Shown here: piece by piece, positions 2,965-30,008 of the stretch | Layout of the letters: each line of letters begins with the position of its first letter | Numbering within the stretch: position 1 is the first letter of the stretch | Source of the DNA: Schmidtea nova | Lineage: Eukaryota | Assembly (NCBI GenBank): GCA_044892505.1 | Contig: CM097884.1 | Location: forward strand, 121,272,001-121,336,000 | DNA length: 64,000 bases | Direction: 5' to 3' | The notes under the pieces: model-generated | Databases searched by the model: none | The model's input: only the letters and a program-made list of their open reading frames with translations | Told to the model about the DNA's origin: nothing | Program-made: the position numbers and the translations under genes

Positions 2965-3426
2965 TGCTGGGTTCATGGAGGGGATAGATGAAAAATGTTC
3001 TAACAATGACTAGGGATCCCTCATCCATGATCATGCATAAAATTGCAATTCTACACTCAAGCGCCCTTGATTATTTCCCTATATAATCAAGTTGGTGATG
3101 CGCAGGGTGGTTAAACAATGATGGGCAGGTGAGCACTATCGCTAGTACCCATTTATGTTTACGGGTTCATTGCTGCCGTTAGAAGGACTTATGCTTTAAT
3201 CATCTACTTATGTATTCCGCGTTAATCTTTCAGAAAATTTATTTTTATCATTGCTCAGTCTGCGAGAAGTATTTCAACGAATGCTCGCTTAATTATTTAA
3301 TTATCTCTATTCGATATTTTGTAAACTGAATTTATACTTTTGTTCTATCTTTATCTAATCATTGGTAAAGTTAATTAAATCAATTTAAATGAACGATGAA
3401 ATTCTTAAGCCAATACAACAATTTAT

Positions 3427-4023
3427 TTAATTTTTAATGAGTTCGGTAAAAACTCCCGCCGGAGGAAAAATCTCCGTCAATAATGCCTCCTCGGTCATCT
3501 GATGTAGACCGTCTACTTGGCTTTGTAATCGCTGGGCAAATAATCTTCTCTGTCTCCGCCGTTTCTGCCCAATGCGCTTGCGTTTCTGGTGCGCAGTTGC
3601 CGGTGAGGTGGTTGAATTTGCTGTAGGAGCTGTCTCATTCCGACTTTCGATTAGATCGGTGACATCCGTGCCAATGGAGTTTACCGTCTTCTTTTCTGCT
3701 GTCCAAGCTTGGTACGTAACAGGACGGATTTGCTCTCTGAGTTCTTTCTCGATATATGAGGCAGTTACGGAATGGAGGCATTTTCGGAGTTCTATCTTTG
3801 TAGCCTCCCATTCCATTTGATAATCGGCTGCCGTCTGTTGGGCGCGCTCGGTTTTACTGATTTGCTCCTTCATTCGGGCCGGAGCAAACCAGCTTTTGCG
3901 CAGATATTCAATCTGTGCCTCTGCTTTGATCAATTGTGCCTTGAGGAGACCCAATTCCTTATCCTGGGCTCTCCGAATCCGCCACCTCTTTTCCAATTCT
4001 CTCTGCATCAAATCGGGGTTCAT
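3427..4023 (-). CDS. LTR-encoded 198-aa protein: coiled coil plus Arg-rich motif KRKRIGQKRRRQRR (3' LTR copy)
   Basis: ATG-started ORF, identical in both LTRs; TTATAG acceptor 1 nt before the ATG; AATAAA overlaps the stop. Confidence 0.65.
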   Translation of the reverse strand: MNPDLMQRELEKRWRIRRAQDKELGLLKAQLIKAEAQIEYLRKSWFAPARMKEQISKTERAQQTAADYQMEWEATKIELRKCLHSVTASYIEKELREQIRPVTYQAWTAEKKTVNSIGTDVTDLIESRNETAPTANSTTSPATAHQKRKRIGQKRRRQRRLFAQRLQSQVDGLHQMTEEALLTEIFPPAGVFTELIKN

Positions 4024-4215
4024 TCTATAATTTATTCAGGATATTTACTCTATGATTTAATTATATGAAAATTAAAATCTGATCATAGGATTATTAGGTC
4101 ACGAATATGAACTATTAAAATGCGAAACAAAACAAAAAAAAATATAAATAAAAAAACAAAATTCACTAATGAACTATAATATTTTAATACAATTTCAACA
4201 TTTGTTGATCAGTTT

Positions 4216-4677
4216 TCATCTTCGAAACAAACAATGCAATTCGCTGTTAATCGGTTTCTGACGCAGACGAGCCCAGGAAAACGCAGGTTGTCCTTTCTGG
4301 CATTCCTTGCCGAACGGTTTTCGCGGTAGGAATTCGTGCAGACCCAATCGGCATAGCTCTCGACGGGGAATATGCCCCCAATAAATTACACGGCTTATCC
4401 GTCCCTCTGTGTCCTGGATCAGTACGACAAGTCGGCCAAATTTGTTTGAGTACGGCCTTTGAGAAATCGGCCAGTTCGGTCCTCCTCGATAGAGTATTAT
4501 ATCGTTTCCTCCGTCCCAGATGGAAAACGGGCACTTTCGGCCAAACCCCTGTCGCCACTTATATATCTGGCAGTTGAGGGTTCGCAATATCGATGCCGGT
4601 AGATCCTTGAGCTGCGAGATATTTCCATTTCGTAGATTCCCTTGTTCCATATTCCGTAGTTGAGTTAATTGATTCAT
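4216..4677 (-). CDS. LTR-encoded 153-aa protein of unknown function (3' LTR copy)
   Basis: ORF present in both LTRs. A diverged protein-level homologue lies at ~62970-63340 (KWRQ..CPFS.W.GG.D....GG..WPI). Confidence 0.7.
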   Translation of the reverse strand: MNQLTQLRNMEQGNLRNGNISQLKDLPASILRTLNCQIYKWRQGFGRKCPFSIWDGGNDIILYRGGPNWPISQRPYSNKFGRLVVLIQDTEGRISRVIYWGHIPRRELCRLGLHEFLPRKPFGKECQKGQPAFSWARLRQKPINSELHCLFRR

Positions 4678-6091
4678 AAGTTCAGCTGTCGACCTCTATA
4701 TTACATTTATTGGATATAAAATATACGAGTTAAGGGGGAAATTCGTTGATAATTTAATTATACTGTATATGATCACAAAAGTTACTTAAAAATAAGATTA
4801 ATTTGATTTCTCTCCGCCGTGATCTACCACGGTCGGAATAAAGAGTTCATAATTAGCCCTGTGCTATATACAGCATTCAGGAATTATCAAATTTAATCAA
4901 GATTTCCGCGCTATATACAGCGATCGGATTATAACTTGGGAACCGCGCCATATACGACGATCGGCCTATTTTTAGTAACTAATTTAATTTGGATTTTCCG
5001 ACGCATTCCATCGCGATCGGAATTTATCGATATTAAAATTCTGTAGGCGAGATGCTGATTCCGAATGAAGTCGGACTTTGGACTACGTTGGATTTTCTCA
5101 TTTCAGCGAAATTATTCAAATTTATTTTATTTGTTGCTCACTGGTTTTCCATGCGGGAGGTTCCATTTCAATTCAATTTACTAAAATTTAAAGAATGAAC
5201 ATGCCTTACCATGGGGTGTCCCTCCTTATCAATCCGCCCTCCGCAATCTCCCTATTTGGCCCTCGACCTCCGTCCGTTGTGCAACCCAGAATTAAATAAT
5301 TAGTAAATGGTCTGTACTAGACTAAAAATTCAATCAAATTTTCTAAATAAAATTCCACATCTAAACTAAATAATAAAAAGGTTGAACCGCCATGTGAGAC
5401 CCTGAGGCCCCACAACGACGACTCGGACTCCCTCGCCGCGTGAGCAGCATAGGAAGTATAGCTATATGCATTAAAGTGTCAATAAAATAATCAATGAAAA
5501 AAAATAAAATGACGTTTACATATAAAATTTTAATTAAATAAAAATCATGGGTACATCATATAAGATAACATAAAAATTACTTCCGTACTTGAATGTGTGG
5601 TTCCTTGTATGAAATTCGGTTCTTTCAAAAAATTACTCAAATCAAAGTTTAGTCTTGATTGTGAGTGAAAATGTAAAACGTCTCTGTCTGTGATTTTTGG
5701 ATCGGTATTTATACTGATCCTTCTGGTTGGATTGACCAATCAGGATCAGGCCGTCCTTCAAAGTATTTTTATTATTTTAATCTAATCTAAACATTATTTT
5801 GTTTCCTTTTCCGGTTTCTCGCTGGGTGGTCCTGATTTTCTAAGTAATTAATTAATTATTTGTACTATTATTTTATTTAATTCTATTTTTTCTTATTTCA
5901 GGCCCCCTTTTGCGGTTGTTTACCGGTTTATTTTCAAAATTTCCTTTTACTGAAAATTTATCAATTATTATTTGTCGTTTTATTGTTATTTTTAATTTGT
6001 TTTTCTTGCTATTTTTATTTTTATTATTTCTTTATTGTTTCATGCTTTTGTTCGTTTTATTGTGTTTTTAGGTGATTTGGCGGGCCCAACA

Positions 6092-6293: not shown

Positions 6294-6863
6294 TTATACA
6301 ATTTGTTCGATCGTCTGGCTCGCTTGGGGTTGAGTTCGGGTCCTCTCGTTGATCATTTGTAGTTCGTAGTGGGTTTGGATGTGGTTGAGGTGGCTCCTTA
6401 TTCGTCTTTGAGCTCGGTTATCTCGTCTGGAGGTTTGGTTGTAGATTTTCTGCTTTTGTTTTAGGATTTTTATTCTATACGAGGCAAGCAGGATTGTGAT
6501 TGCGATGATAGTTGTGCTGACTGCTAGGATTATGATGATTGTTATGATCCATTTCTCTTGATATTCTATTTCAGCTTGGGATAGGCTTTTTATGGGTTCT
6601 CTACCTTCTTTCAGGATTTTTCGGGTTTCCTTTAATTTCAGTTGTTGGTTACCGAAGATTTGTTGGATTTGATGGTCTTGATTGTGGGGGTATTTCTGTC
6701 GGAATTCGTTGATTTCTTTAATTACTTCTTCGATTAGTCTGTCTACTTTCTGGTAGATTTTGTCGGGTAGCACTCGTAATTGGGTTTCGGTTAGTTGTAA
6801 ATCTTCTCTCTGTAGGGTAATGGTTGTTAACCATAGGAGTGTTGCTATTGCGAGCTTTCTCAT
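6294..6863 (-). CDS. Accessory type-I membrane protein, 189 aa from ATG 6863 (signal peptide, coiled coil, TM, basic tail)
   Basis: MRKLAIATLLWLTTITLQ is signal-like; TM WIITIIIILAVSTTIIAITILLASY followed by RIKILKQKQK. The ORF-track start at 6896 is GTG. Confidence 0.7.
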   Translation of the reverse strand: MRKLAIATLLWLTTITLQREDLQLTETQLRVLPDKIYQKVDRLIEEVIKEINEFRQKYPHNQDHQIQQIFGNQQLKLKETRKILKEGREPIKSLSQAEIEYQEKWIITIIIILAVSTTIIAITILLASYRIKILKQKQKIYNQTSRRDNRAQRRIRSHLNHIQTHYELQMINERTRTQPQASQTIEQIV

Positions 6864-6938: not shown

Positions 6939-8000
6939 TTATACAAGGGTTTCGTTGGGTTCGTGAAAACCTTCGTCTTGAGGTTCCACCTGATTTATGG
7001 GGAGTGGCATCCATATTACCGTGCTCCTCCACATTTCGACTTCTTCTCGGTATGTGTGGGATATTTGGATCTCTTCGTCTAACAAGTATTCCAAATAGTT
7101 TGCTTGTTCTGTAAGGGTTTCAATTTGTCTTTCTAGTTCCATTAATCTTTTCTCTCTCTCCTCTTTCTCCATCATTTCGGTCACTGCTGCTGTGATACTT
7201 GTTTCTTTTATTGGCGTTGGTTTTTCTGCCAACTTCTTTCTCAGTTCTTCGTTTTCTTTTGTCAAATTTGTTATGTTCTCTTCATAACTCTGCCTCGTTT
7301 CTTCCAGTCTTTCTTTAGTTCTTTTTAATTCTATTTTCTTCTGGGTGATCACTCCTTGATATCCATTTATATCTCTTTTCATGTTTTCTTCTTTGTGATT
7401 CCACATTCCGGTCAGCATACCTTTTAATTGTTCTTGATTGGCTAAATCTTCTCCCATTCTTTGTACTTGATAAGTTAATTCTTTTATTTTCTTGGCTTGT
7501 TCTCTGATAAATTGTTGTCTTTTCTTACTCCATACTTTATTTGACGCTTCTTGACTGATCTTTTGCCCTAATTCCTCTTTTAATTCATCGATCTCTTTAA
7601 ACAGTTTCCAATCATCGCTGTACGCTGTTCGTTCTATTATCTCCCTTGCTTCCTTATAAGAGTCTTTTGCCTCTTTCTTCCAATATCTTGCTTGTTCTGT
7701 GATTGACTGAATCTTATGGTCTGTTTTTATTTGTTGTCTATCCCTATCCTCTCGTCGCTCTTTCATCATCTCTTTGTAGTATTCGTTTTGTTGTCTTAGT
7801 AGTTTGTAGACTTCTTCTATTTTTTCTCGACTTCTTTGATTCGTTTTCTCGGCTTCTCTTAGTGCTTGGGTTTGTCTTTCCAATTCCTCCTGTTTTCGAT
7901 AATAGGCATGAATCCATATCCCAATCCGCTCCATGTGATTTCTGATCATTTCGTCTTGATGTACTGTTACTTCTTGTAAGGTTACTTCTATATTTCCCAT
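6939..8000 (-). CDS. Accessory 353-aa long coiled-coil protein, unknown function
   Basis: Intact ORF with E/K/R/Q-rich heptads; AATTATAG acceptor 2 nt before the ATG. Confidence 0.75.
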   Translation of the reverse strand: MGNIEVTLQEVTVHQDEMIRNHMERIGIWIHAYYRKQEELERQTQALREAEKTNQRSREKIEEVYKLLRQQNEYYKEMMKERREDRDRQQIKTDHKIQSITEQARYWKKEAKDSYKEAREIIERTAYSDDWKLFKEIDELKEELGQKISQEASNKVWSKKRQQFIREQAKKIKELTYQVQRMGEDLANQEQLKGMLTGMWNHKEENMKRDINGYQGVITQKKIELKRTKERLEETRQSYEENITNLTKENEELRKKLAEKPTPIKETSITAAVTEMMEKEEREKRLMELERQIETLTEQANYLEYLLDEEIQISHTYREEVEMWRSTVIWMPLPINQVEPQDEGFHEPNETLV

Positions 8001-8113: not shown

Positions 8114-9490
8114 TTACGCCAACCATCCTTTTCTGTCTGTTTTCTCATGCTTCTCCATCTCTATGTATAGCGTGTCTGCATATAGTCGCTCCCATAGGTT
8201 TTCTTTCCTTATAAACATTGGTTCTCCTGCTGCTAGTCCGCATTCTGTTGTGGGTTTTTCGCTCGTACTGGTATGTTTATCTGTTTCAAAGAACTTTTCT
8301 ACTGGTTTTCCCATACTTTTGATTCTTATAATGACTCCTACTTTCAAGGGCCATTCTATTAGGTCATCGTATTCTCCTTTACATAGCGAGAAAAATATTG
8401 ACACGTGTGTTCCTTGTCCTCTTCCGTCTCCATTTGGGTATACTTTCAATCTTATTTTAACCCCGTTTTTCCATAAATAAAATGGTGGGCTTATTTCTGC
8501 TGTTTTCGTCATATTTCTGGCTTCTGCTAGTTTGTCTCTGAAATCTGTTACTTTCCATAGGTAAGGTGCAATTGGTAAGTCCCTTCTTTCGTCAATTTCT
8601 CGTATTAACTGATTATATTGTATTTTCATTCCTTTTCCTAATTCTTCTATGGCTATTATTTTCTTTTCCATTCTTTCGCGAGTTAGTTCAAACTGCTCTC
8701 TTGTTTCTAGTAGTAAACTCATCATTATCTTATGTGATTCTACTTCTTTTTCTAATTTCTGGATTGTCTGTTCCGTTTCTTTTGTCGTTTCGTTTGTCAT
8801 TTCTACATGCGTTAGTGCTGCTTCTTCTAGGTGTTGTTTCATTGATTGCCGCGTCCGCTTTTCTTTGCATCCCTGTTTGTTATATGGACATTCTCTTGGT
8901 CTTTCGGTACATACTTTCCAATGTTCATGTAACTTTACTTCTTCTGTTATTTCGCAATTGTTTGGACATTTACTTACATATTGTCTGCATACTTTCTCCT
9001 CTGTTATATTCAAATGTTCTTCCTCGATTTTTCCCCTTGTTTCTCGAGTTTCACAATACTCGCATGCGATTTCTTCTTCTTTACATTCTTCCTTGTGTTG
9101 TTCTCTCTTCTTTAGAGTTATTGTCTGTTGGCATTTCTCGCATTCGGCTCTCTTTTCCTCGCATTTTTCCATATGGTTCTCTAGATTGCTTATTTGTCCT
9201 TGCCATGTACAAGGTGTATTTACGCACTCCGTTATGGTGCTCATAATTTCTCTCTGGGTTGCTTTGTCCGTTCTGGTTTCGTTCAACACTATTCTTCCTT
9301 CTTTACATTCTGGGCATGTTGTTATTCCTGTTACATCTAATTCTTGTATACATTTTGTACATATTCTACATCCACATATCGTTTGTCTGGGTTCTCGTAA
9401 TAAATTGTTACATTTTCCGCATGTGAGCCTCTTGCTCCATTTTCTGTTTTCTAATCTCAAAATTTCGATTATTCGTTCTTCTCTGTCCAT
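8114..9490 (-). CDS. Full-length TRAF-family protein (RING, TRAF zinc fingers, coiled coil, MATH/TRAF-C), intronless, element-borne
   Basis: RING CGKCNNLLREPRQTICGCRICTKC..CPEC; zinc fingers CVNTPCTWQG..LENHMEKC and CPYNKQGC; MATH YLWKVTDF..ISPPFY..KVYPNGDGRGQGTHVSIFF..GEYDDLIEWP. Confidence 0.93.
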   Translation of the reverse strand: MDREERIIEILRLENRKWSKRLTCGKCNNLLREPRQTICGCRICTKCIQELDVTGITTCPECKEGRIVLNETRTDKATQREIMSTITECVNTPCTWQGQISNLENHMEKCEEKRAECEKCQQTITLKKREQHKEECKEEEIACEYCETRETRGKIEEEHLNITEEKVCRQYVSKCPNNCEITEEVKLHEHWKVCTERPRECPYNKQGCKEKRTRQSMKQHLEEAALTHVEMTNETTKETEQTIQKLEKEVESHKIMMSLLLETREQFELTRERMEKKIIAIEELGKGMKIQYNQLIREIDERRDLPIAPYLWKVTDFRDKLAEARNMTKTAEISPPFYLWKNGVKIRLKVYPNGDGRGQGTHVSIFFSLCKGEYDDLIEWPLKVGVIIRIKSMGKPVEKFFETDKHTSTSEKPTTECGLAAGEPMFIRKENLWERLYADTLYIEMEKHEKTDRKGWLA

Positions 9491-9583
9491 TCTCTACAAT
9501 AATATATACATTCGACTTGTCATTTATTTTTTGGTTTTTCTTGTTTTTATTTTTACATATTTACAATTTTCCGCTTTATTTAT

Positions 9584-9940
9584 CTATGGCTCATTCGTTG
9601 AATCTGGTTCCGCTTCGTTGTTTAGTCTATTTATTACCCAACTCATCCATCCTTCTTCGGATTCTTCTCTTTCTCCTCGTGTTAAATGGTTTATTTCTAT
9701 TGCTTGTCTTTGATTGATATTGCTTATATTTTGATTTTCTCTGGTGAGCTCGGTTATCGCTCTTTGTTGTTCTTCTATTCTGTGTAATTGTTCGAAACAG
9801 TTGTTATAACTTTCTGATAATAACATTTGTCTTTCCGCTAATTGGTTCTGTAATGAGTTGACTGTTCGTACAAATAAATCACACTGTGCCTTCCATCTCA
9901 TAGCCATAGTTATTTCAGTTGTTTCGTCCTGTTCGGTCAT
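9584..9940 (-). CDS. Accessory 118-aa coiled-coil protein, unknown function
   Basis: ATG ORF with Q/E/N-rich heptads; TTTAG 3 nt before the ATG; AATAAA just after the stop. Confidence 0.65.
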   Translation of the reverse strand: MTEQDETTEITMAMRWKAQCDLFVRTVNSLQNQLAERQMLLSESYNNCFEQLHRIEEQQRAITELTRENQNISNINQRQAIEINHLTRGEREESEEGWMSWVINRLNNEAEPDSTNEP

Positions 9941-10065: not shown

Positions 10066-13000
10066 CTATACCATCATTATCGTCTTTTCCTCGTATCGTT
10101 CTTCATCTTCTATTTGTTTCCAGAATTCTTTACCTTTCGTTCTTCTTTGGAATTCTTGCTGTATCTCTTCTGGTATTTCTATTCTTTGTTTCATAATTTT
10201 AATATCTGGCCATTGTATGGCTGTCGCTTTGTTTCTCTTTCTGTATCTCCAATATATTATCATGCTTGTCGTCATTATCCCATATGCTATTAATATTCCT
10301 ATACTGATTAATCCTATTACTGTTTTTCCACGGTTTGTTGCTTTGATTTTATTCTGATTCGCTTTTATCTCATTTTGGGTTTGAGCCTCTGGCTTCTTCT
10401 CCTTCTGTACTTGATTCTTGACTTTGTTCATTACTTCTTGGGTAGACCAATGGCGGTTTAGTAGTTGTTTGACGTTATTTTCTTTTGTCTGGTTTTCTAC
10501 GCTTCCTGGTTCGATCTGTTGTTGTAGTTTCTCTGAGATCTGATATAATCCGCATTCTGGTTTTTCTGAACCTTTTCTGGTGAAGGTACATATCGCGTAT
10601 GTCCTATTTACTTCCATTTTCTTTAATTCGACTTTTTCTTTATTCTTTATTTCTTTACAGTGGGTTAGGTTGTCTTCTTCCCCTTCTGGGTTATGCTTTG
10701 TCCAACATATTCCTTTAACTGTCTGATCGAGTCCTGTTAATGTCAGAGTTCTTTCTGTCTTTGTTAGTTCTTCTTCATCGAATTTCAGTATCTCTCCTTT
10801 TTGGAATGTCTTGCAATGCTCTATTCCCTCTTGGATTCCTTTCTCCCAGATACATATACTTCCTTCTTCATTCATTTGTATTTCTTGTATTTCGATTTCC
10901 TTGTTTGTTCGTGATTCGTCGCTTGTCTGAACTTGGTATTCCTTCCTTGGTTCGTTGTATGTTCCCCAGCATAGTTTGTTGCTACTTGTTTTCCTTATTG
11001 TTATGGCCATTTGTTCTATTATTATTCCTTTATCGATACGTTTGGACATTGCTAGTATTAATGCTATGCATACGCACTCCTGTTGGGGTGATATTCTTTC
11101 TCTCGTTTTATTGGTGCTTTTCTCTCCTTCTCCTGGTTTATCCGTTGTGTTTCTTATCTGAGTTGCTGGTTGATCTATGGTGTTTTTGATTTCTTTCTTT
11201 GTTGGTTTTACTCTATACCATTCGAGTCCAGGCGTTTCATATTTTTGGCATACGACTGTCTTAGGTAGCCCCGCCTTCTTTTCCTTTCCTATTATGCATA
11301 TTCGATGCATGATTCCTCTATACATCCCTTCTATTCGTACTACATCCTGGTCGGATTTTCTGATTATGCATTTTAGTGGGTTATCTTTCCCAATTGGTTC
11401 ATCCTCTCTATTCCAGCATATTTTCTCGACCTCTTGGACATTTACTATTTTTATCCCTGCTTGTAGGTTTGTTGCTTCATCCCTATTGATTAATGTCAAT
11501 ATTATTGTTAGACCCAACCATTTTGAACTCTGCGGTAGACTTCTGGTTCGCCTTTCATATTTTTTCTCTTCTCCTTTAATCTCTTTTATTTCCTTGTCTT
11601 TGTTGTTCATTCCTGGTTTTACGATTTTTGCTTCTTTCTTACTCCTGGTCGGTTTTGGTTCTTTTCGTGCTTCTAGTATTTCGACTCCATGGCTTGTATT
11701 ATCTATATTTAGCCATTGGGTTGTTGATTTTCTTGGGCTTATCTTGCGTATCCATATAGCTGATAACGCGATTATTACTGGTATGGTTGCTGTTAATATT
11801 CCTAAGCCGATCAGTTCTTTAATTTCTTTATTCTCGTCTGTTTGTATAGGTTCGCTTTGGTTGTACATTATTCCGTATTGTCCCTTTAGTTTTCTCATTA
11901 ATTGTTCTCGTTCCTCTTGCTTTCTTTTGACTTCTTTGATAACTTCTTCAGGTGTCCATTTTGCTTGAGGGTCGGTTATTGTTTTTTCTGCGTCCATTTG
12001 TTCATTCGTTTGGCTTAGTTCCCTGAATTCGAGTTTCCTTGTTATTCCTTTTGATGTTGCGTTTACTGGTGTATAGTAGGTTTCGCATCTTTCTTGTTGG
12101 TTTCCTAGTGCGTCCGTTTTTTCTATTGTACATACTTCGTACTCGCTATTAAATTGTAGTCTTTCGATCTTGATTTCTTTATTTGTTTTTCTGCACTCTC
12201 TTGATTGTCTTCTTATATATTTCTGGACTAGTATCCAACATATCTCCAATGTTTTATTCTCTATTTTCCATAATGTCAGAGTTGCTGATGTCTTTTTCTC
12301 GGATTTTGTCGTAACTTCTTGGCTTATCGGTTGTTTATTGTTTTTAAAGGTAGTGGTGTACTTCGGTTTCCCTTTGTTTCGTTGTCTTCTTTTATTTTTT
12401 CGTGTTAACGTTTTAGTTCTTGTTCCGGATGAAGTGGTGTATATTCCGCATTCTAGGTCGTTTATCGTTATCTGATCATTTTTCTTTACCAGACATATTT
12501 CGTAAGTTTGTTTACTTTCTAAACCTTTTATTTGTATCGTCGTTGCTCCTGTACTTGTTCGACATTGTGGTGTCTTTCTTTCATTCGTCTCTTTTTCGTA
12601 CTTCCTCCAGCATACTCCTTTCACATTTGGTTCTATTTCTTTTATTTCTAATGTTATGTTTATTTTCCGCTTGATTTGTTTATTTCTCTTCCTCGTTCTC
12701 CTTCTGAACTTTATTACTTCTCCGGGTTGAAATGTTTTACATTTTGTGGTACCTTTCTTGTTTGTCTCTTTTTCTAATAGGCATAGTTTGTACATCTTAT
12801 CTGCTTTTACTTCGGATACTTTAATTACTTTGTTTGTTGTTGGTTTTCGACTTTTCCTTATTTCATTTACGCCGATTTCCTCGTTATTCCTCGCCCAACA
12901 TTTTATGTTAGTATTCTGTGTATCTTCTACTTCTGTTATTGTCATAGTTTCAATTTCTATTCCTTCCTCTAATCGTTTTATTATTATTAGTATGAGTGCT

Positions 13001-13520
13001 AAGCATAATACTTCCATTTGGTAAGACACTCTTTCGGTTTCGTTTGTGGCAACTCTTGCTTCGGGTCTTTTTATTGTAATTCGTATAGTTGGTGTTGTTT
13101 GCTTATCTATTGCCTGGGGTTTTTTGTTTTCTGTTCCCTGTGTCTCTGTTCTTCCACATTTTCCGAGGATGTAATCTCCTTTGGGTGACTGTTGTATTGT
13201 CATGGCTGCTTTAGGTGTTTGGTATTTTGCACATGCGATTGTGTTGTGTGATCTTGGATGCTTTTGTTTTCTAACGGTGCATATTTTGTACCAGGTATCT
13301 AGATCTAAGTCATTGATCTCTATGATCTCTTGCTCGTGTTTTGAGATTCTGCAATCCATCGGGCTATTTTGTTCCGTGGTTTTGTCCTTTTTCGACCAAC
13401 ATACTCGTTCGATTCCTTTTGCGTTTTTTATTTGTATTATTGCCCTTTCTTCACATGTCATTCCCTGACTTGGGTTAATTAACGTTAAAATCACTGTTAG
13501 TAATAGTAATTCTGGTTTGA
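10066..13520 (-). other. C-terminal duplicated extracellular modules: signal-like segment, several FN3-like repeats, TM helix (two copies)
   Basis: Repeated pattern ICW..C...I.I..L....Y.IC......C..Y.T. Paired segments LLTVILTLINP / LTIILTLINR and VLCLALILII / VCIALILAM. TM helices at ~11750-11818 and ~10250-10325. Confidence 0.6.
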
Positions 13521-16500
13521 AGAATGGTTTTATGGTTGATTTATAACCTGTTCTTTGGGTGTCATTTTTATCTCCTTGGTCGTTTGTTCCTTGTTCTCCC
13601 TCTTCATCTCTTTGTTTTTCGTCTTCACCTTTCTTTCCTTCCTTGTCTCGTTTCTTGTCTTTTCTCTCGTTTTCCTCTTTATCGGGTGGTTCGTGATCGC
13701 TTGGATTTTCTGAGTTGTTACCGTCGTCACTATCTGTGTTGTCATCTCCCCCTGGCTCGTCGAAAATGTCGTCCTCGACATTGATTTCTTCTATTAGTTT
13801 CGCATACGCTAATGTCGTTAGATTACTTGCCTCAAATTCTTGTGTTTCTATTTGCTCTGGTATTACTTTGTTAGTGGATTTATGTTCCAAGATTTCCTTT
13901 TTGGCCTTGATCCAATTGTTGATGTATGTCTTCATCAATTCTTTCCATTTGCCTGTGTATTTTTCCTCTTTCGGGCTGGTTGTGATTTTTAGATCTTTTC
14001 TTTCCATAAACATCTTCAATATCTCTGGCCATTTATACGTTATTAAGGCACTTCTTATGCACCAGTTTTGGTTATGTTCGGTAAACTTATTAATCCTGAA
14101 TGCTGGTTCGTTAGTATTAGGATTTATCCACGTAAGTATTGATTCTGTTAGTTCGACGTTGTTCATCATTGCTAGTACACTGGGTTTCTTGACCGTATCA
14201 GTTAGGTGATCTATTTCTTCCTGATTTGGGATTGTTTTAATGAAATTGACCATTTCCCAATTATGTGTTAATAATGCTACATCCAATATTGAATTATCTT
14301 TCTCTGTTTTGCCTGTAAGTCCTGCACCTGCTTTGTATAGTTCTTCTAATACCTTTGTTTTCGTTTTGGCCCTTGCTGCAAATACCATAAGTGTATCTCC
14401 TTTCTCGTCTATCATATTCATATTGCTGCCGCAATTTAGCATTACTCTTGCAATTTCCATTACTTTCCTATCTTTGCCATTTCGTAGAGCTCTATGTATG
14501 GGCATTATTCCGTCTTTTGGTAATAGGAATGTTACTGGCATTTCCTTTTTTATTATTACTATGTCGTTACCATTGTATGTTCCTTTTGCGTATGCGTGTA
14601 CTTTTTCAACTAATGCGCCGAGTATTTCCAGTGCATGTTTACTATTCTCGAATTCCGGTAACAATTCTTTTGCTTTTTCTTGTATCGCATCTAGTCTAGC
14701 TTGGTATGGTGCTTCTGCTTTGAAGAGTGGTGTGAGTTTCTTGTTACTTTCTCTTTCTTTTTTCTCTAAAACCTGTTTGCATTTTTCGGGATGGTTTAAG
14801 ATTTTTACTAATTCCTCATATTCGCTTACTATCGTCTGGTATATCTCGTTAAAATTGCTTATGTCTCTGTATGTTATTAGTTTATCAAGTGGTTTCGCGC
14901 ACCATTTCCTAATCTTATTGAATAAGGCTTCCTTCTCTTTATCGAATTTGTATTCTTCTTCATTCTTTGTGATGTTTATGTTTCCTCTGTCTAATAAGGT
15001 TAGTAATGTCTTCTGATCACAAGTAAATTTCAGAAGATATCTTAACAGCGCGTTTTGTCCTTCGCTGTATACTTCGTTTATGTCTAAGACCCATGTATCC
15101 TCTTCTGGTCGTTTCCATTTGATTAACTTACGGATCGTGTTGCATTTACCAATTTTGATTGCTTCTTTGATAATGTCTCTTTTAACCAATTCGTCTATCT
15201 CCCAAGTGCAGTTAGCTATTATGTATTTCAGCATTGGTTGGTGAGAACTCCATATTACGTGATTTAGCACTGTTTTGTCCTCTCTATCTCGTTCTGTCCA
15301 ACTGAAATGAGCTTTTATCAATAGATCTATCATTTCTTTATCTGCTTGGTGGATTGCGGCTGTCATTAATGGAGTTTCTTGTTCCCGATTCCCTACGTCC
15401 AAGTTTTGGTTTGTTTCTTTTGCGATTTTTAGGAATTCTTTTGCTCTTTCAATGTTTTTACACTCTATCGCATTATGTAAGGCTGGTTGTCCTCCTACAT
15501 CTTTCAATAAGAGTATTTCAGGGATTTTTTCCAATAATTCAGAAATAATTGGTTCGGTTGGTAATCCTTGTGCGTAACGGCTAATTATATGTCTAATATC
15601 CCTTGATATGCCTGCTTCGTCTCTAACATGCCATCTTCCCATTATCTCTCTCGCCTTCAATATGATTTCTTTATTTCTGATTTCTTTTTGCCTTATTTCT
15701 GCTTTGTCGTCTTCGGTTGCATTAGCTCTGAGCATATTTATCCTGGCTGTTTGTGATCTGGTTATTATTCGATTTTCTGGTGTTGTAGTTATCGTTTTAG
15801 GCACTTTCTTACATCTGCAGGTGTTTACGTATATGGGTCGTATTAACGGTCGATTTACTAGCTTAACTTTGACATTATTGTCCTTCTTGTATATAATTTC
15901 GTAAGGTCCTCTTCCAGGTCTTTGGAGTTTCTTAACAGTTCCTGGTATTATTTCGGGAGTTTCTATTATCACCCAATCTCCTGGTTTTAGATCGTTTGCC
16001 TTTACATTTTTCTTTTGGTCGTGTAAATCCTTATAACTTTCCTGATAAAATTTAATGTTGAGTTCTGCCGTTTTCCATATTTCCTGCATTCTCTCTTTGA
16101 ATTTGGTTACGTAGTCGTCATCTTCCATATATTGCGATAATGGTGGCTGATACTCTAAATCTATGGGCATGTTGCATTCTCTTCCATACATAAGTTGAAA
16201 TGGGCTTAGTTTTGTTGCTGCATGTATCGACATTCGGTATGCCATTAAACATAATTTTATATATTCGTCCCAATCAGTCTGATGTCTGCTGACGTAATTT
16301 GATAACATTCTGATCAATGTACCATTGAATCGCTCCGTTTGTCCATTCGTTTGCGGGTGATATGGTGAAGTTCTCAATTTTGCTATTCTGAAATAGTTTG
16401 TCACCTCGTTCAATAACTCACTCATGAAGTTAGTTCCTTGGTCTGTGAGTATTTGTTTTGGAGTTCCGTATCTGCAACATATTTCTTCCACTAGAATTTT

Positions 16501-19500
16501 TGCTACGGTTTTTGCTTTTTGATCTTGCATGGCAAATGCTTCCGGGAATTTCGTCAGATAATCCGTTATCACCAATATATAAATATTTCCGTTTAGACTT
16601 TCTGGTAATGGTCCTATTACGTCCATTGCTATAGTTGTCATTGGCTCTGCTGGTATCGGCATTGGTTGTAGCGGGTTCTTCCATTTCTTCCCACTATCCT
16701 TTCTGGTTGCGCAAGTTAGACAATTTTTAATCCATTCCTTTATATCTTCTTCCATTGTTCGCCAATAATATTTTTGTCTCATACGATTTATGGTCTTTTT
16801 CTCGGACATATGACCTCCCAATTTCCCATCATGGTATTGGATCATTATCTCTTTCCTTCTGTTTTCTGGTAAACACATCAATCTCTTTTCACCGTCTTGT
16901 ATTAACAACCATCCTTTATTTATTATGTAGCGATGTTGATATTTTCCTATATGTTCCTTTAGTTCCTTATTATCCTTGAATGCCTCCATATTTCGAGACG
17001 TTAGGAACTCTAGGATCTGTCCTAATTCTTTGTCTTCCTGTTGATCTTTCTTTAACTCACTAAAATCTAAATCCTCCGCTATTAATACACAAATTCGTTG
17101 TACATCAGGATCGGTTAATTCCGGAAATGTCAGTCTTGACATACAATCTGCATTCGCATTCGTTTTTCCTGATTTAAATTTTATGTCTGGTGAGTACTCC
17201 TGTAACTGCATTGCCCATCGCATTAATCTACTGGATGTTTCCTTGTGCTGTCCTAACCATACAAGCGGTTGGTGATCTGTTGTTATGCAGATGATGTGAC
17301 CCCATAGTAAATATTTAAAGTGTTTAATAGCTAATATAATTGCTAATGCTTCCCGTTCTGTTACTGAGTAATTTTTCTCGTGCTTTTTGAATGTCCGGCT
17401 ATAATATCCGATTACCCGTTCTTTTCCTTCGTCGTCGTATTGTCCTAATACTGCTCCTGCTGCATATCCGCTTGCATCTGTTGCAAGTAGGAATGGCTTC
17501 TTGAAGTCTGGGTGTACCAATATGGGTGCGGTTATCAGTTTATCTCTCAATGTTTCAAAAGCTGTTTGTTGTTCATCTCCCCATATGAATGATACGTCTT
17601 TCTTTACCAGCTCCTGTATAGGCTTTGCTATTCCGGCGTAATCTTTTATAAACTTTCTATAATATCCACATAGTCCGAGAAATTCTTGTATTTGGGTTAT
17701 TGTTTTTGGTACTGTGCATTCTTTTACTTTGTCGATATTTCTAGGATCCGGTTCTTTTCCTTTTGCTGACACTATATGTCCTAAAAATGTAACCTTTTCT
17801 TTTGCCCAATCGCATTTTGATGGCTTGAGTTTTAACTTCCATTGTCTAAGCCTAACGAATACATCTCGAATATCCTGTATGTGTTGTTCGAATGTACTAG
17901 AGTAAATCAATAAGTCGTCGATGTAGACCATGCACTGCTTTATTCCGTGGGTGACGAAATTCATGCATCTCTGAAATGATGCTGGTGCGTTCGTTAATCC
18001 AAATGGCATTTTCCGAAATTGATATAGGTCTCTACCGATGGTAAAGGCAGTTTTCTCTTTATCTTCTTCCTTCATTTTTATTTGCCAGTATCCGCTTTTC
18101 AGATCTAACGACGTAAAATATGCTGCTCCTTGTAATGTTAATAGCATTTCATTAATGTCTGGTAATGGGTAAGTATCCCTTTTTGTCACAGTATTCAATC
18201 TTCGATAGTCTATGCAGAATCTCTGTGTTCCGTCTTTCTTCTTTACCATTACCACTGGAAATTGCCAGGGTGAACAACTTGGTTCGATTACTTCTGCATC
18301 CAACATTTTCTTCACTTCTGCTTCTGCTACTGCTTTCTGTGCTTCCGCTAATTTGTACGGCCTTAATGCAATTGGTGTTTCATCTGTTAATGGTATTGTA
18401 TGTAGTGTGACATCACATGTTCCTAGATCTAAATCGGATGCTGCAAATATATCCTTATACTCTATCAGGAGTTTTTCTAGCTGCTTCCTTTGATCCTCAT
18501 TTAATAATTCACTATCAATATTCCAGGTTGGTTCTTTATCTTTCTCTGCTCCTTCTATTGGCAGTTCGATATCCATCATTGGGGTTAATTTACCTAATCT
18601 TTCGTTTTCGTATATTATTTTGTCCTCTTCGTCGAAGTTTACTACGTTTATTGGGATTTCTCCATTATCGTTTATGTTAACTAGTCCTCTTGCCATTGGC
18701 AACGCTTTTCTTTTCTCGAATCTCTTACTTGGTTCGAAAATCATATCCCCTTGGATTGTCGGATCTATTTTTACGTAACATATTTTCTCCTTTCTTGCGG
18801 GTATTATCATTTGCTTTGAACTTGTCACTTTGGCTTCTATTGCGCATATTTTTCCTGTGCTATCCTTTAGTCTCATTGTTCCGAGGTCGATTACAATCTC
18901 TTTAAATAATGCTGGCATCAAATCTGTTCCGATGATGCAAGGTACGCTTAATGCTGGTATAACTGCTACGTATGTATCGATTTCCGTGTTTAAGTGGCGT
19001 ATTTTTACCCACCATCTTCCTGCTACTTCTACAACTTCTTTGCTACATGCAATTATATGGACGTTTGTCCTTTCTATATCTCGTCTTTGCTCTTGTGGTA
19101 TCCATTTGATGTCGATGGCAGAAATGTTTGCTCCCGTGTCGATCATTGCTTCGATTTCCCTTCCGTTAATCTCTATTGTCGTGGTTAATACTGGACCTGT
19201 GTTTGATGACATCACTGCGATCGTGTGTGTATCTCCTTGTGGATCCACACTTCTACATCTTCTCATTTTATAATCTTCTGGTATCATGGGATATACATTT
19301 GTCATTGGCATCATTTGCATCGTGCTATTTTTTCCTCCTTGTAGTGGTTCTTGATACATTGTTGGTGGAGGTGCGTAACATTTCCATGCGTCGGCTGGAT
19401 TCTTTTCGATGTATTGTGGTGCTTGGTTCTTATACACTTGTCCTCCCTTATAGTCGTCATCGTCGTCATCGTCGTCACTCGAATCATTTTGGGTTTTATA

Positions 19501-22500
19501 TCCTTTCATCCTCTCCCATAAACCTTTTCTTTCTCTCTTGAGCTGTTGTCTTGCTTGTTCGTCATTCATTATCTTTTTAAATTTTCGTCCTACTTCTTCA
19601 TCTGTTCCCTTCATTTTTGCAAGTATCTTCAACAATCTCTTTATTCGATGTATGTCCTTTGAGTGTCCGTGCAACACCATCGTTTTCGCGAGGAATGGTA
19701 AAAATCCTACTACCATTTTCCAATTCACTTTCTTTTCTCTCTTGTAAATATCGAAACACGCTAACATTTGCGTTATTATCACTCTGACGATTTGTATTAT
19801 TAATATAACCCCCAGTATTCCGGCCATCATTTGTCCGAATATCAGAAATCTTCCCCACATTGCTTTCATCATATTTTCGGTGGCTTTCTTGAAATGTGCT
19901 GGTGACAACAACAGTTCATAATTCGGTCCTTCTCGATAATTCGTTCCTCCCGTTATCGTTACGATATTTGACAGTAATGCTTCTCTTCTTGCCGGGAATA
20001 ATATATTCTGCCTTGCTGCTTCTAAATCCTTTGGACTATATATTCCGTTGTTTGAGACATCTACGTCGCTGAATTGCCTATCCTTTGACAACTGCATTAG
20101 CTCGAATTCTCTTGGTGCTATCACTTCGGATCTTCCTGGGAACATAACCCATTTACCATCTGGTTTCTGATAAAGCGGTCCATACGCATTACTACAGTTG
20201 AATGGATTTGGTTCAAACCCTGGTGGATTGATGATTCTCGTCACCGGTTGGACGTATCGTACTTTTCCTTTGTAATCGATTTCTAACTCATTTGTACAGG
20301 TTCCAGGTTTCAACTGTGTTGTTGCTGCTAGCGACGCGTGTGTTTTTTCGCAAATGTATACGTACATTGCTTCTCCGACCACTCTTCCGAAATGTCCTTC
20401 TCTCAGTGGTAATAATGGCATCGCGCTATCTGGATTCGTAATCGCTACGGTCAATTTCGTCTTTAATATTTCTCGATTCAGTATACAATCATTGTTTATC
20501 AGATCGTAGTACACTTTTTGTAATGAGGCTTGTCCTCTATGGAATAGGAAATCCATTTTATTATTCACATATAGGTGTAGTTTGATATCCATTGTGTCGA
20601 TTTTGGGTTTCGCGTTTGGCACTTCTTGTTTTGACACATATATTCCTGGGTAATTTGTTTCGTATACCGTTGTACTACACTTGAGGGTTGCTTTTCCTTT
20701 TATGAACCTCATTCCCACATCCTGATTTGTGGTTATCAATACTGTTGGTGTGGCTCTCATCTCTATTCGTTTTTCTCTATGATCTGGTTTCAGTTGTCTT
20801 TTATTCTCTAAAGCTTCCTTGAGATGCTTTGCTCTCTCTTTGTCGTCATCGTCTTCTTCCTGGAACGTTTTTCCTTGGATTTCGTCGAACTTTGCTCCTT
20901 GTAGCAGTTGTAACTGACATTCGTTTACCTTTGGTTTGTACACTAATGTTGACATTCCCGTTTGACACATGCTCCTGTCGATTTTACACATGGATAACGT
21001 TTTCATTTCTCCCGTTGTTGGTTCGAAGAATGCTTCGTAGCTTTTTAGTTCGACTATATACGTATCCATCACCACTAAGTTGGTTGCGGGTACTCCGAAT
21101 ATCGGGTAGGTTTCTCCTTGACAATATCCTTCTCCTCCCGTAATCCGTCCTGCTACATAGTATGTCTGTTGCATCATCATTCCTGGCTTTCCTCTTATCT
21201 TGATTTTATCTCTTGTTGTTACTTCTCCATGTTTAAACAGTGCTTCGCAGTCTTCTCCTTGTAACACGATTGGTTCTCTTTCCGTTCCTGTCATGACAAT
21301 TGCTGAATAATGTCCTCTCCCGCAGTAGAATGCGAATCTCGTCTTCTGCACTTTACATTCATTCACCATTGTCTTTATGAGTTCTGCTTCTTGATACACG
21401 TGGTACCATTGTTCCTTTTTAATCTTTTGCAACTCTACCGGAGTTGCATCTTTGCATTGCTCCGTACCTCTCAATGAATACTTTTCTCCTAACTTCATTT
21501 GGTCGCAATCAAACACTTCGAATGCTGTTGCGCTATCGGTGCTAATCATCCATATCAACATCATCATTATTATAGCACTCAGATTCATTGATGACTTCGC
21601 GTTTCCTGTTCCTGCTTGTTCTTTTTCTAACTCTTCCAATATTTTTTCAAATTTCTTTTTCATATTCTTGGCTTGTGTTTTCTTCTGGTTAGTTTTTATA
21701 AATGTTTCCCATCCTCCTTTGTTAATGACGTAGGGTTCTATTTCTCTAGCTATAATCTTTGCGGTATTTTTTATATGTATCTCTAATGCAGTGGGTTTTG
21801 GTCGACCTCTACTCAGTGTCAACAGATTGTAGATCGTGTATGCAATAGCTATTACGTATTTGTTATCTGTTTCCGCTCCTTCTGTCAGTTTCTTTATTAA
21901 CATAGTGGTTCCTTGCCAGTCTAAGTGATTTGATTTCGTCTTTTCTTTTATGAATTCCGGTAAGATGGGTGCGATTGCGCTGTGTAGTGACTTCGCCTTT
22001 TCGCTTATCTCAGTTATCCGCCAGTATTTTCTTAATTCCGGATCAATTATTGCCAATATTTCCATTATTGTTTTCGATATCCATTCCTCCCCCTGACATA
22101 TTGGTGTTGTCTCTTTTTCTTTCATCTCCGCAATTTTATTTAATTTCCTTAAACATAATTCCCATTGATCTTGTCTCTTTTCGTCTTTATTTCTTACAAC
22201 TACAGTTGCTGGGTCTGTCTTAGGTCTACCTCTAGGTCGTTTATCCATTCCTGTACCTGTTTCCACAAATCTTGTTGTTCGTCCGGTTTCCTCGGTGACA
22301 TCTCTTGGTTCGTTAGCTCTTTCTTCTAACCATCTTTCCATTTCTTGTGTTAATTGTACATTTTCGACATTCGCTCCTCTCGTTTCGTCTTCTGTTAGAT
22401 CGTTTACTTCTTCTATTATTATTTCTTCTTCGACTTCTGCTTCTCCGGTGTTGGTTACTTGTATTGTCGTAGGTAGTTCTTGTATTCTTTCGAAAATGTT

Positions 22501-23932: not shown

Positions 23933-26900
23933 CTATGTTTTTTTGACTTGTGGTATGATTTGTTCTATCAGGGAATTTAGATTCTTTCGTAAGACTCGTT
24001 CTTTCTCGTATTCTAAACGAGGTTTTATTCTCCTTTCGAAGCACGTGTTTGCCTCCCTTGCAACTTCTTGTAGGTTCTCTTCTTCCTTTTCATCGCATAT
24101 TGATAATAGGGTTATTTCTCCTGGCCATATACCTGTTTCTACTAAGTGCGTTCTTTTCTTTACGAGTCTATTCTGCGAATAGATGAATTTGTTTTTATAT
24201 GAGCTCCCTAGTCTATCCTCTACCCATCTGTAGATATCGTCTGTAAATGGAGTTTTGATCCAGATTCTTGGTGTAGATGTATTTATTATTATTGAGATGG
24301 TGTAATTGAGGAGTGGTTCCTCTATTAATTTCCCTACGTATCGATTCAACATGTCTACTTCCCGGTCTTGTAACCATTCTTTGTAGTTCATTTGTAATAA
24401 TGCTTTCATGAATTTCCGGTATTGTTTCTTGTCCATGAACTCTTCGTTATATATTACTTCTAGCGAGTTATCTAATAATTTCTGGATTTCATCTACTTTT
24501 ATCTGTGTAGGTTCTGAGGTCTTTATTACTTCTCTCTCTTTATTTTCGTCTTCGGATTCATTTAATATGTCTCCTGCTAGGCTACTGATGTCACTATCTT
24601 CTTCATCGGAAAACTCTCTGGTGGTATTTCTTAACATATTAATATGTGCTGTTTGGTTCGTTTCCCCTTGTATATTCTCCGTTGGTTTTGTTTTGTTTTT
24701 TCTGATTTCTGGTGTTAGTTCATTTTTGTCCTCTATTACTTCGACTTTTTCCATTTTCTTTCCCAACTCGTCTATCTCTTTTAAACGTCTTCTTATCATT
24801 TTTCCTTCAAATATTCGCCGGATTCGGGTTTCGTGACGTATTGGTGGTGGAATTTCTTCTGGTTCTATTTCTTTAATTCTCATCACATTTCTTTTTGTCT
24901 CTGTTACTCCCACGTTTTCCCATATATCCGTTAATTTCAATTTTACTGATGGTGCATCTCCTATTTGTAAGAACGCTTCTCTGGGCAGTTTCGTTACTCC
25001 CGGAATCATCTGGTTTACTTTATTGAACAGTATTTCCACCTTTTCTTTTGCGTTATATTGAAATCGAAACATATGGTCGTTGGGCATGATTACCATCATT
25101 CTTTTTTTCCAAATCTCCTTTCCCTCTTCCTGGTTTATCTCGGTTTCCACTTCCTTTTTTGTTTCTTTTTCTACTTCTTCATCTTTTTGTACTATCTCTT
25201 TTCGACTTTCGTTGTCGGCTGGATTCGGGTCTATCGAATTTATTTCCAGTGTGATTTCTTTCTCGCGAGTGTCTGTTTGGTTTGTTGCTCTTAACATGTT
25301 GATTCTTAGAGGTTGTCGTTCTCTTTCTTGCTGTTTTTGTTCATCCTCTCTTTGTATTCTTGCCCATTCCTGAGCGTGTCGTGCTTGACTTTCTCGATTC
25401 AACCGTTCGTTTTCGCTTTCTATTTTTCTCATCATGCTAATTTGCTGTTGATTGGTTTGCGGATTTCCTCTCGTCGTATTGTTTATGAGTTCCGTCAACC
25501 TTTGAACTTCTTGCATCAAATGAATTTCTTTGGGGGTGGTTTTGTTCTGATTATTGTTATTGTTGTTTTGTTGGTTTCCATAATCTGGTCGGTTTACGGT
25601 ATTTGCTTGATTTCCGTAATTTGGTCGGTTCCCATTACTCTGCCAGTTTCCTCGTTGATTACTTTTTTGTCCGCAATTTCTTGAATAGTGACCAGGTCGT
25701 CCGCAATTAAAACAGATTATTGTAGAACATCTGCTTTCCGAGTGTCCTTTAACTCCACATTTTCCGCAATTCAAATTTTGATAGCATTCTTGCTGCCAGT
25801 GTCCCAACTTCCCGCATGTTTTACATTGTTTTGTTTGTCTTTGAGGGTTGTAATTGTTTTGGTTTTCAAAGTTCTGCACTTTATTTCCTTCATTCCTTCG
25901 TTGAGGGGGTGGTCGGTTTAATTGTTGCGAATTTGGAATGTGATTGTTGAGATTTACCTCTGGTTCGGTTTGTGCTGTGTCCATGGCTAAATAAATTCTG
26001 CCCTCACTTCCTATCATATGCAATTCAAATCGGTTAGCTGTTTCTAACGCTTGATCTATGGTTTTGCATCCTTGACATCCTACTTGCGCTCTTATGTCGG
26101 GTCTTCTTAATCCTCCTATGAAGATAGCTGCCATTAACTCCTCGTTTATTGGACCTCCATCCTTGAATACCGATTTTGCTAATTTTTTCAGTTCGCTCGC
26201 GTATACCGCATTAGATTCATTCATCTTTTGTTTTCTCATTGAGAACTCTATGAATGCCTCGCTCAGCACTTTATTTATTCCAAATGTTTGTTGGAAAAAA
26301 TCCTTTATCGCTGTCCAGCTTGTAGGTGGATTGGTACCATTTTTCGCTTCCAAATATAGGTCCAATGCACTATCTTTCAAATATAACTGAATTCTGCTTA
26401 CCGTTGTTTCAGCTTTCCACTTGCATACCTCCACGAATATGCCAAATTCTTTTAAAAAGGTTTCTAATTTACTCGCATCTCCGTTAAACGGTTCTCCTGA
26501 AAATTTATCCTTTATTTCTTCTCTTGGTTCACCCATTTCAATTCCGCTGTCTTGAGTTATTTTACTTTCGTTTCCTCTTGTTTCTAGTTCGTTGTTATGT
26601 TCGTCTTCCGTTTTACTCGAGCTTGAATCGCTTTCTGTTTCTCTTATTCCTTCGTTATCTGATATTATACTTTCGTTATCACTCGCGTTGATTTCTATCT
26701 CTGGTTCTACCTCGTTTTCTACTTCTTCGATATTATCGTTGTTAGTTTCGTCGATTTCTCCTTCTTGTTCTATCTCGTGTTCTATTTCTTCGATATTATC
26801 GTTGTTAGTTTCGTCGCTCTCTATTTCACTTGCTTGGTTCTCCTTGGGTTCGGCTTGGTTTTCTTTGTTACTTGAGCTGTTGCTTACTATTGACAATTTA

Positions 26901-28741: not shown

Positions 28742-29203
28742 TTATAAATATACAATAATTTTATCGTCTATCATCAGGTTGCACATAGGACATAGGTCGC
28801 ACTTGCTGGCACATATTTTACAAAAACGAAAATGTCCGCAAGGTAAAAACATAATTTGTATCTCGCTATCCTCACATATATAGCACTGTCGGTATCTTTT
28901 CGCTGCTTCTACCCCCTGCGCCCTCCATCGATTGTATGTTGAGGTTAATTGTTGTTCTATTTGCCTGCACTTAATATTTAATTCTGCATTTTCTAATCGT
29001 GTTCTGTACCATTTGTAGCGGGTCTCTATGTCGATTTTTCTTGTTCTTTCTGTTATCTTTATTAATCCATCTGTTTCCTCAGTCTGTGTTGTGGGTTCCT
29101 GAAATTCAATTTCTCTAAATCGGTTTATTTTCTTGCCAATCGTTTCTAATGTTTCGCTTTCTGTGTTGAGAAATTCTTCAATTTCTTTCAGTTTTTCCTC
29201 CAT
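28742..29203 (-). CDS. 153-aa coiled-coil plus C-terminal IAP-type RING (C3HC4) E3-ligase-like protein; no BIR domain seen
   Basis: CYICEDSEIQIMFLPCGHFRFCKICASKCDLCPMCNLMIDDKIIVYL at the extreme C-terminus matches the cIAP/XIAP RING pattern. TTCAG 3 nt before the ATG; AATAAA after the stop. Confidence 0.85.
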   Translation of the reverse strand: MEEKLKEIEEFLNTESETLETIGKKINRFREIEFQEPTTQTEETDGLIKITERTRKIDIETRYKWYRTRLENAELNIKCRQIEQQLTSTYNRWRAQGVEAAKRYRQCYICEDSEIQIMFLPCGHFRFCKICASKCDLCPMCNLMIDDKIIVYL

Positions 29204-29516: not shown

Positions 29517-29534
29517 ATCCCGGCTGAGCCCCCA
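29517..29534 (-). promoter_or_regulatory. Primer-binding site, tRNA-Pro
   Basis: TGGGGGCTCAGCCGGGAT is 16/18 identical to the MLV tRNA-Pro PBS TGGGGGCTCGTCCGGGAT and lies 6 nt from the 5' LTR. Confidence 0.88.
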
Positions 29535-30008
29535 AATTTATGCTGGGTTCATGGAGGGGTTAGATGAAAAATGTTCTAACAATGACTAGGGATCCCTCAT
29601 CCATGATCATGCATAAAATTGCAATTCTACACTCAAGCGCCCTTGATTATTTCCCTATATAATCAAGTTGGTGATGCGCAGGGTGGTTAAACAATGATGG
29701 GCAGGTGAGCACTATCGCTAGTACTACTCCCCATTTATGTTTACGGGTTCATTGCTGCCGTTAGAAGGACTTATGCTTTAATCATCTACTTATGTATTCC
29801 GCGTTAATCTTTCAGAAAATTTATTTTTATCATTGCTCAGTCTGCGAGAAGTATTTCAACGAATGCTCGCTTAATTATTTAATTATCTCTATTCGATATT
29901 TTGTAAACTGAATTTATACTTTTGTTCTATCTTTATCTAATCATTGGTAAAGTTAATTAAATCAATTTAAATGAACGATGAAATTCTTAAGCCAATACAA
30001 CAATTTAT

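Follow-up and report, generated by a model that had tools for sequence, protein, structure and literature searches.

The window analysed here, a stretch of 64,000 nucleotides of the Schmidtea nova genome, contains an open reading frame for a TRAF protein in the midst of a giant LTR retrotransposon. This raises the question of whether the element carries a whole host gene that it puts to use, and if so, what that use might be. A sequence-only reading of the window had proposed an intact, intronless, retro-captured TRAF2/3-like gene that rewires TNFR/TLR signalling. Both TRAF domains on Burro elements and parasite-encoded TRAFs are already known. The cargo listed for Burro elements comprises MATH_TRAF_C, BIR, BCL2, ankyrin and env, MATH_TRAF_C lies in an upstream accessory ORF in a Burro-like element of Dugesia tigrina, and interference with apoptosis and ubiquitination has been proposed for Burro cargo (Arkhipova and Yushenova 2019, PMC6431247, excerpt; sources marked in this way are cited from the parts available).

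Results

A whole TRAF gene in a giant element

The ORF is a whole TRAF2/3-class gene, from RING through MATH (Table 1). Pfam called the MATH domain (PF22486, E 3e-20) and zf-TRAF, and left the RING uncalled at E ≤ 0.01; residues 17-148 match the solved RING-zinc-finger regions of TRAF2, TRAF5 and TRAF6 (PDB sequences, E 3e-12 to 2e-7), and the metal ligands are complete in both the RING (8/8) and the zinc fingers (20/20). RING ligand 4 is Cys in place of His, as it is in all eight host planarian TRAF loci that have a RING and in four proteins outside the planarian clade. The AlphaFold2 model (mean pLDDT 92.4, pTM 0.47, 35-sequence alignment) has a single helix spanning the coiled coil, and its top PDB matches in Foldseek were the TRAF domains of TRAF3, TRAF1, TRAF5 and TRAF2 and the N-terminus of TRAF6. 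Ligands, Pfam, PDB and model thus agree that RING, zinc fingers, coiled coil and MATH are intact, as first read. From this architecture the protein would be expected to form a trimer.

The A-rich coding noticed in the same reading was also borne out. The coding strand of the TRAF ORF contains 46% A (third-position A 0.56) and the polyprotein of the same element 44% (0.51), against 32-38% (0.30-0.35) in all six host TRAFs measured, so that the base composition is fully element-like and unlike that of host TRAFs.

The gene belongs to the accessory cassette at the 3' end of a gypsy LTR element that is intact, 29.7 kb long and, by layout and domain content, of the Burro type. Its two LTRs are 99.27% identical, it is flanked by the target duplication CCTG, and we take the primer-binding-site-like stretch to be of the tRNA-Pro type. 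From 5' to 3' the order is LTR, 153-aa RING ORF, Gag, polyprotein, 118-aa ORF, TRAF, 353-aa ORF, 189-aa ORF and LTR. The C-terminus of the polyprotein consists of repeats with membrane segments; the FN3 label given in the sequence-only reading had no Pfam match. The RING of the 153-aa ORF most resembles those of XIAP/cIAP (E 5e-10), a homolog search with this ORF gave no match, and neither Pfam nor a BIR search found a BIR in it or anywhere else in the element. A BCL2-like domain likewise had no Pfam or PDB match in the element, and a GGW motif seen by eye is only presumably BH2-like. The 118-aa ORF has invariant W..W and EPDS motifs and belongs to no known family, an atlas search giving no reliable relative.

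Table 1. Features of the giant element in the window, in 5' to 3' order of the element.
Feature	Position	Strand	Basis
5' LTR, 3.1 kb	29541..32658	-	LTR comparison
Primer-binding-site-like stretch	29517..29534	-	sequence inspection
153-aa ORF, C-terminal XIAP/cIAP-type RING, no BIR	28742..29203	-	
Gag, 867 aa, zinc knuckles	23933..26536	-	Pfam
4618-aa polyprotein: fusion glycoprotein, protease, RT, RNase H, integrase, ankyrin repeats	10066..23922	-	Pfam
118-aa coiled-coil-like ORF, invariant EPDS near C-terminus	9584..9940	-	
T-rich tract and TAG immediately before TRAF ATG, splice-acceptor-like	9494..9510	-	
TRAF ORF, 458 aa, one open frame, no internal stop	8114..9490	-	translation, Pfam, PDB matches, model
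RING, aa 24-62, eight Cys ligands	9305..9421	-	PDB sequence matches, ligand check
Five TRAF-type zinc fingers, aa 89-228	8807..9226	-	Pfam zf-TRAF, ligand check
Coiled coil (TRAF-N), predicted helix aa 225-303	8582..8818	-	AlphaFold2 model
MATH/TRAF-C, aa 310-445, peptide groove altered	8156..8563	-	Pfam PF22486
353-aa coiled-coil-like ORF	6939..8000	-	
189-aa ORF, signal-like and membrane-like segments	6294..6863	-	by eye
3' LTR, holds 198-aa ORF (3427-4023)	2965..6091	-	LTR comparison

Copies of the gene and selection upon it

A protein search of the genome gave at least 92 scored matches to the TRAF at 95-100% identity, which together with the element in the window make up family A. Since selection of copies by the TRAF itself was to be avoided, sampling was anchored on an integrase 24-mer with 135 exact matches, of which the first 60 of the 100 listed were examined. 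A TRAF confined to this copy would have refuted the sequence-only reading, but the gene was found in full in 51 of the 60 and in part in one; in the remaining eight stretches the element match stops earlier, and two of these have a TRAF match 21-23 kb from the anchor. Dropping a tandem duplicate (L086) and adding the window copy gave a set of 52 full genes, 44 of them without stop or frameshift.

Variants present in at least five copies (alleles counted, not events on a tree) are here called shared. They comprise 31 nonsynonymous (N) and 96 synonymous (S) changes with zero stops, giving an omega of 0.10 (bootstrap 0.07-0.15), and 98 of 142 shared changes fall at third positions, so the copies do not evolve neutrally, the other outcome that would have refuted that reading. 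Shared N/S was 4/12 in the RING, 13/35 in the fingers, 5/12 in the coil and 7/29 in the MATH domain, the most constrained part of the protein (omega 0.08), and the 20 zinc-finger ligands had no shared variant in the 52 copies. When the frame was shifted the ratio reversed (90/26 and 102/11). Controls from the same copies gave 0/73 for the RT end with RNase H, 7/118 for integrase, 38/135 for the ankyrin region and 182/176 for the C-terminal repeats, which places the constraint on TRAF below that on integrase (p 3e-5), level with that on the ankyrin region (p 0.68) and above that on the C-terminal repeats (p 2e-7). Private variants (106/64) include 8 stops and have an omega of 0.53, as is expected after insertion. 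Purifying selection acts on all four TRAF domains across copies, and this is evidence of use, not of which use. One group of four family A copies lies in tandem at about 33-kb spacing (G000:C1:590.84-590.95 Mb).

Five sister families

Genome searches found five further families of elements (B-F), four of which contain a full TRAF that is 51% (B), 37% (D), 70% (E) or 45% (F) identical to that of family A. Between families the TRAFs are 36-70% identical, yet the gene is retained; dN/dS between A and E is 0.16, the other pairs being near saturation. Family B has the layout of A, including RT, and in both families Gag and Pol are separate ORFs. In contrast, family C has a Burro1-like layout in which a single ORF encodes a 4606-aa Gag-Pol polyprotein, and this contains the MATH domain only; the TRAF coil and RING are missing and the 118-aa ORF was not found, while the RING ORF is present. 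The RING ORF accompanies TRAF in families A, B, D and E, and the 118-aa ORF lies directly upstream of TRAF in all five full-TRAF families.

All six copies of family D that were examined lack RT, RNase H and integrase, as do the one informative copy of E and both copies of F examined, and other copies of these families may carry them. In E (L196-L198) and F (L175-L180, L199-L200) the loss is in frame, between the protease and the ankyrin region, and the deletion joins differ between the two families while TRAF is retained. We rejected the reading of the gaps in D, E and F as splice products, since the joins are in frame and different in each family and since family A lacks a GT at the matching 5' place.

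Family D is represented by a 24.7-kb element with 4.2-kb LTRs that are 99.98% alike (one copy, G000:C1:554514361-554539019, L164-L166) and by further loci (L141-L152, L181-L195). No Gag core, envelope, RT or integrase was found in the six copies examined, which retain the RING ORF, protease, ankyrin repeats, TRAF and, directly after TRAF, a 389-aa IAP with BIR and RING domains. There are at least 91 TRAF matches to this family and at least 150 BIR matches in the genome, and 12 of the best 14 BIR loci examined are the TRAF-IAP cassette of family D. Shared N/S among 13 copies was 12/20 for TRAF and 20/34 for the IAP.

Two other ORFs recur between families. The 198-aa ORF is present in each LTR of the window element (3427-4023 and 30009-30605) and is kept at 31-42% identity in families B and E. 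The 353-aa ORF and its homologues end in ETLV (A), ETDV (B), ETFV (D), ESLV (E) and ETIV (F), and ETLV also ends a 110-aa ORF of family C; to our eye these C-termini resemble the class I PDZ-binding motifs of viral proteins.

Origin of the captured gene

Trees were built on the RING, fingers and MATH, with either 35 rows (mixture model) or 25 rows after 10 were dropped. Both trees unite the element TRAFs and those of planarians in a single clade (100/96 for 35 rows, 99/97 for 25), in agreement with the proposed capture of a TRAF2/3-like gene from the host lineage. Within it the A, E, B and F TRAFs cluster at 99/96 (35 rows) and, joined by D, C and the proteins P0014 and P0040, at 92/96 (35 rows) and 85/86 (25 rows), unstarred. 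Constraining the elements to group with non-planarian TRAF2/3 was rejected (p-AU 0.007), as was placing the family A TRAF by itself with each of four host lineages. Since the element TRAFs group together, the capture predates the split of these families, whose backbone tree is ((A,E),(B,F)),(C,D); the TRAF tree departs from this backbone at B and F only, suggesting that some exchange took place. No close host donor gene was found among the host loci examined, and the element TRAFs may be sister to the sampled host genes rather than nested among them (93/84). Judging from these trees, with their long branches and skewed composition, the element TRAFs are one old capture from the planarian host lineage.

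While capture from the host is thus upheld, the intronless state is no proof of passage through RNA, because six host TRAF loci also run from RING to MATH in a single open frame, collinear with relatives and with no element ORFs in their examined flanks. Host TRAFs are much expanded in the genome, and named relatives of theirs are from Dendrocoelum lacteum and Dugesia japonica, which places the host among the triclad planarians. At G000:C2:405-455 Mb host TRAF/MATH genes are densely clustered and include tandem arrays.

Expression signals before the accessory ORFs

Since the TRAF lies behind a 14-kb ORF, it needs its own mRNA. The AG of the acceptor-like site before its ATG is kept in 52/52 copies, and acceptor-like YAGs occur at window positions 29207, 9943, 9494, 8003 and 4025 and at matching places in B, D, E and F. 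In five families, which are related and hence not independent, 22 of 27 accessory ORFs have a YAG no more than 11 bases before their ATG, compared with 135 of 513 background ATGs. The accessory ORFs are spaced in an operon-like manner, by 75-125 bases, with AATAAA in three of the four gaps. Flatworm trans-splice sites are UUNYAG and operon gaps there are below 300 bases (PMC12582326, excerpt). The TRAF would then be made from a spliced sub-genomic mRNA with its acceptor just before the ATG, for which cis-splicing and spliced-leader trans-splicing are the candidate routes. Among the matches listed for four sequencing runs of unspecified type over 2900-12000, neither a joint nor a loose end fell at the acceptor-like sites.

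Discussion

We are highly confident that the element contains a true TRAF, that it derives from the host lineage and that it is under selection, as a joint claim. On this account an ancestor of the planarian giant retrotransposons took a TRAF2/3-class host gene long ago, and selection at the level of the element preserves it. What it does is less certain. The MATH groove retains Tyr351, but the Phe, Ser and Cys of TRAF3 are replaced by Ser410, Ala421 and Glu423; these residues are fixed in 51-53 copies, and families B and D retain the groove aromatic. We take these positions to be those that shape the receptor-peptide groove. The altered groove means that the ligand is likely to be unlike vertebrate receptor tails, and since it departs from the receptor-binding form, the protein would not be a receptor-recruited adaptor. 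Instead, it may act on host TRAF and IAP partners through its coiled coil and RING, and the gain to the element would be the survival of its host cell, which is probably a stem cell or germ cell. We give an even chance to this reading of the element TRAF as a putative pro-survival accessory protein in host TRAF-IAP ubiquitin signalling. The IAP-type RING in the window and the BIR+RING IAP right after TRAF in family D count for it, and the lack of a BIR in family A counts against it. Knock-down of host TRAF leads to more cell death (PMC7586133, excerpt), and the IAP of Burro1 reportedly shields stem cells from caspase death (PMC13465017, excerpt). The direction of the effect could be either, because the one viral TRAF tested, ISKNV ORF111L, promotes apoptosis (PMC3352826, excerpt).

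Other roles have to be weighed against survival. The element TRAF could be an immune decoy that mixes with host TRAFs and damps a TBK1/TAK1 response to foreign nucleic acid, so that the element is expressed and survival is secondary. The altered groove beside a conserved coil and RING and the much expanded host TRAFs would fit, as would the finding that in planarians TBK1 restricts the expression of transgenes and switches on host TRAF genes (PMC13563047, excerpt), but the constraint on MATH is tighter than a passive decoy needs, and we regard the decoy as possible though doubtful. A role internal to the element, in which TRAF is a scaffold or ligase for element proteins in particle assembly or traffic, draws on the 118-aa protein, whose ORF precedes every full TRAF and was not found beside the lone MATH of family C. 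The invariant EPDS of its tail presumably resembles MATH-binding motifs. When a trimer of the TRAF coil+MATH was modelled together with this protein, without alignments, the score was 0.00, which counts neither for nor against binding. Since family D retains TRAF though it has no Gag core, envelope, RT or integrase, and family C replicates with MATH alone, such a role is unlikely.

The first proposal had been that TRAF pairs with the 153-aa RING protein as TRAF2 does with cIAP and so rewires TNFR/TLR signalling to NF-kB. The likeness of this RING to those of XIAP/cIAP stands, as does its company with TRAF in four families, but cIAP binds TRAF2 via BIR1 and neither the protein nor the element has a BIR, so that a cIAP-like pairing within family A is unsupported; the TRAF-IAP pair is seen instead in family D. 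Moreover, family C has the RING ORF as well but no TRAF coil or RING. A scan of the polyprotein tail and the 189-aa ORF for three standard TRAF motifs found none of them, and S. mediterranea yielded no clear NF-kB homologues (PMC13563047, excerpt). Searches of the S. nova genome for Rel-homology and TNFR domains, which had no positive control, gave no match and carry no weight here. With the groove altered as well, receptor rewiring finds no support, and the proposal as a whole seems very unlikely. That the gene is a neutral passenger, captured recently and without function, could be read from the stops and high omega of the private variants, but the low omega and third-position excess of the shared variants, the retention of TRAF in families that have diverged widely and its fully element-like composition make this extremely improbable.

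Returning to the pro-survival reading, the arrangement in family D may be taken further. We suggest, quite tentatively, that the operon-like cassette is a TRAF-IAP survival module captured whole, from which splicing or spliced-leader trans-splicing yields single mRNAs, and that high-copy satellites which shed RT and integrase kept this module and live as helper-dependent carriers tuning stem-cell survival. Replication-defective transducing retroviruses carry a host signalling gene in a comparable manner, and the copies of D, E and F examined are like them, by analogy only, in having kept a captured gene without RT-RNase H-integrase. The planarian families differ in being germline-inherited, high-copy and under purifying selection, with no sign of transformation.

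Burro/GYPSM1 of Schmidtea mediterranea and the D. tigrina element share with family A a length of about 30 kb, long LTRs, Gag, a fusion glycoprotein before protease-RT-RNase H-integrase, ankyrin repeats and MATH_TRAF_C cargo (PMC6431247, excerpt), whereas family A has a complete TRAF on the 3' side of the polyprotein, an ORF of its own for Gag and no BIR. The B-IAP of Burro1 (Lee et al. 2026 Dev Cell, via PMC13465017, excerpt) is likewise a captured apoptosis regulator on a Burro element, reported to be pro-survival in stem cells; it is a BIR+RING protein, while in family A a RING without BIR accompanies a whole TRAF, and in family D a TRAF stands beside a BIR+RING protein. Host TRAF2/3/5 (PDB; Smed-TRAF-2A/B, Dj-TRAF2A) have the same RING, five zinc fingers, coiled coil, MATH and fold, and the all-Cys RING is common to planarian host and element TRAFs, but identity is about 30% and the element TRAF differs in Ser410/Ala421/Glu423, in A-rich codons and in being mobile. 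The sequence-only reading held that viruses usually hijack host TRAFs rather than encode one; megalocytiviruses (ISKNV ORF111L, PMC3352826, excerpt) and giant viruses (BFVD) do have TRAF-like proteins, which are encoded by a parasite as here. ORF111L differs in being a pro-apoptotic protein of 296 aa in a DNA virus, closest to fish TRAFs and independently captured (PMC3352826, excerpt).

In the literature covered, to which Grohme 2018, Jurka 2007 and Lee 2026 are external and may hold one, we found no account of a full-length element TRAF, of its selection or of RT-less TRAF-IAP families. What was a domain label in Burro elements becomes a testable gene that is whole, old and under selection. 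If a co-carried TRAF joins the Burro1 IAP, the host-transposon mutualism would reach beyond a single caspase inhibitor and take in a signalling module. Hundreds of element-borne copies may also have entered counts of planarian TRAFs and the RNAi and expression data on them.

TRAF and ankyrin domains, both carried by Burro elements, are enriched among the targets of SMEDWI-3 piRNAs (PMC6824462, excerpt). Cross-targeting of host TRAFs by element piRNAs was considered and found weak, there being short DNA matches only (34 host loci; best 21/21 for D and 26/28 for A).

The rest of the window contains a second, ordinary gypsy-like element adjoining the giant one (33118-38602), with 260-base repeats that are 99.6% alike. 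ORFs at 55189-56652 and 57471-57911 we take by eye to be hAT-type transposase-like, and exon-like pieces at 96-509 and 51738-52172 presumably resemble a GPN-loop GTPase and a BRCT protein, again by eye. A single-frame, host-like RING finger ORF of 218 aa (Pfam zf-RING_2) lies at 60666-61322.
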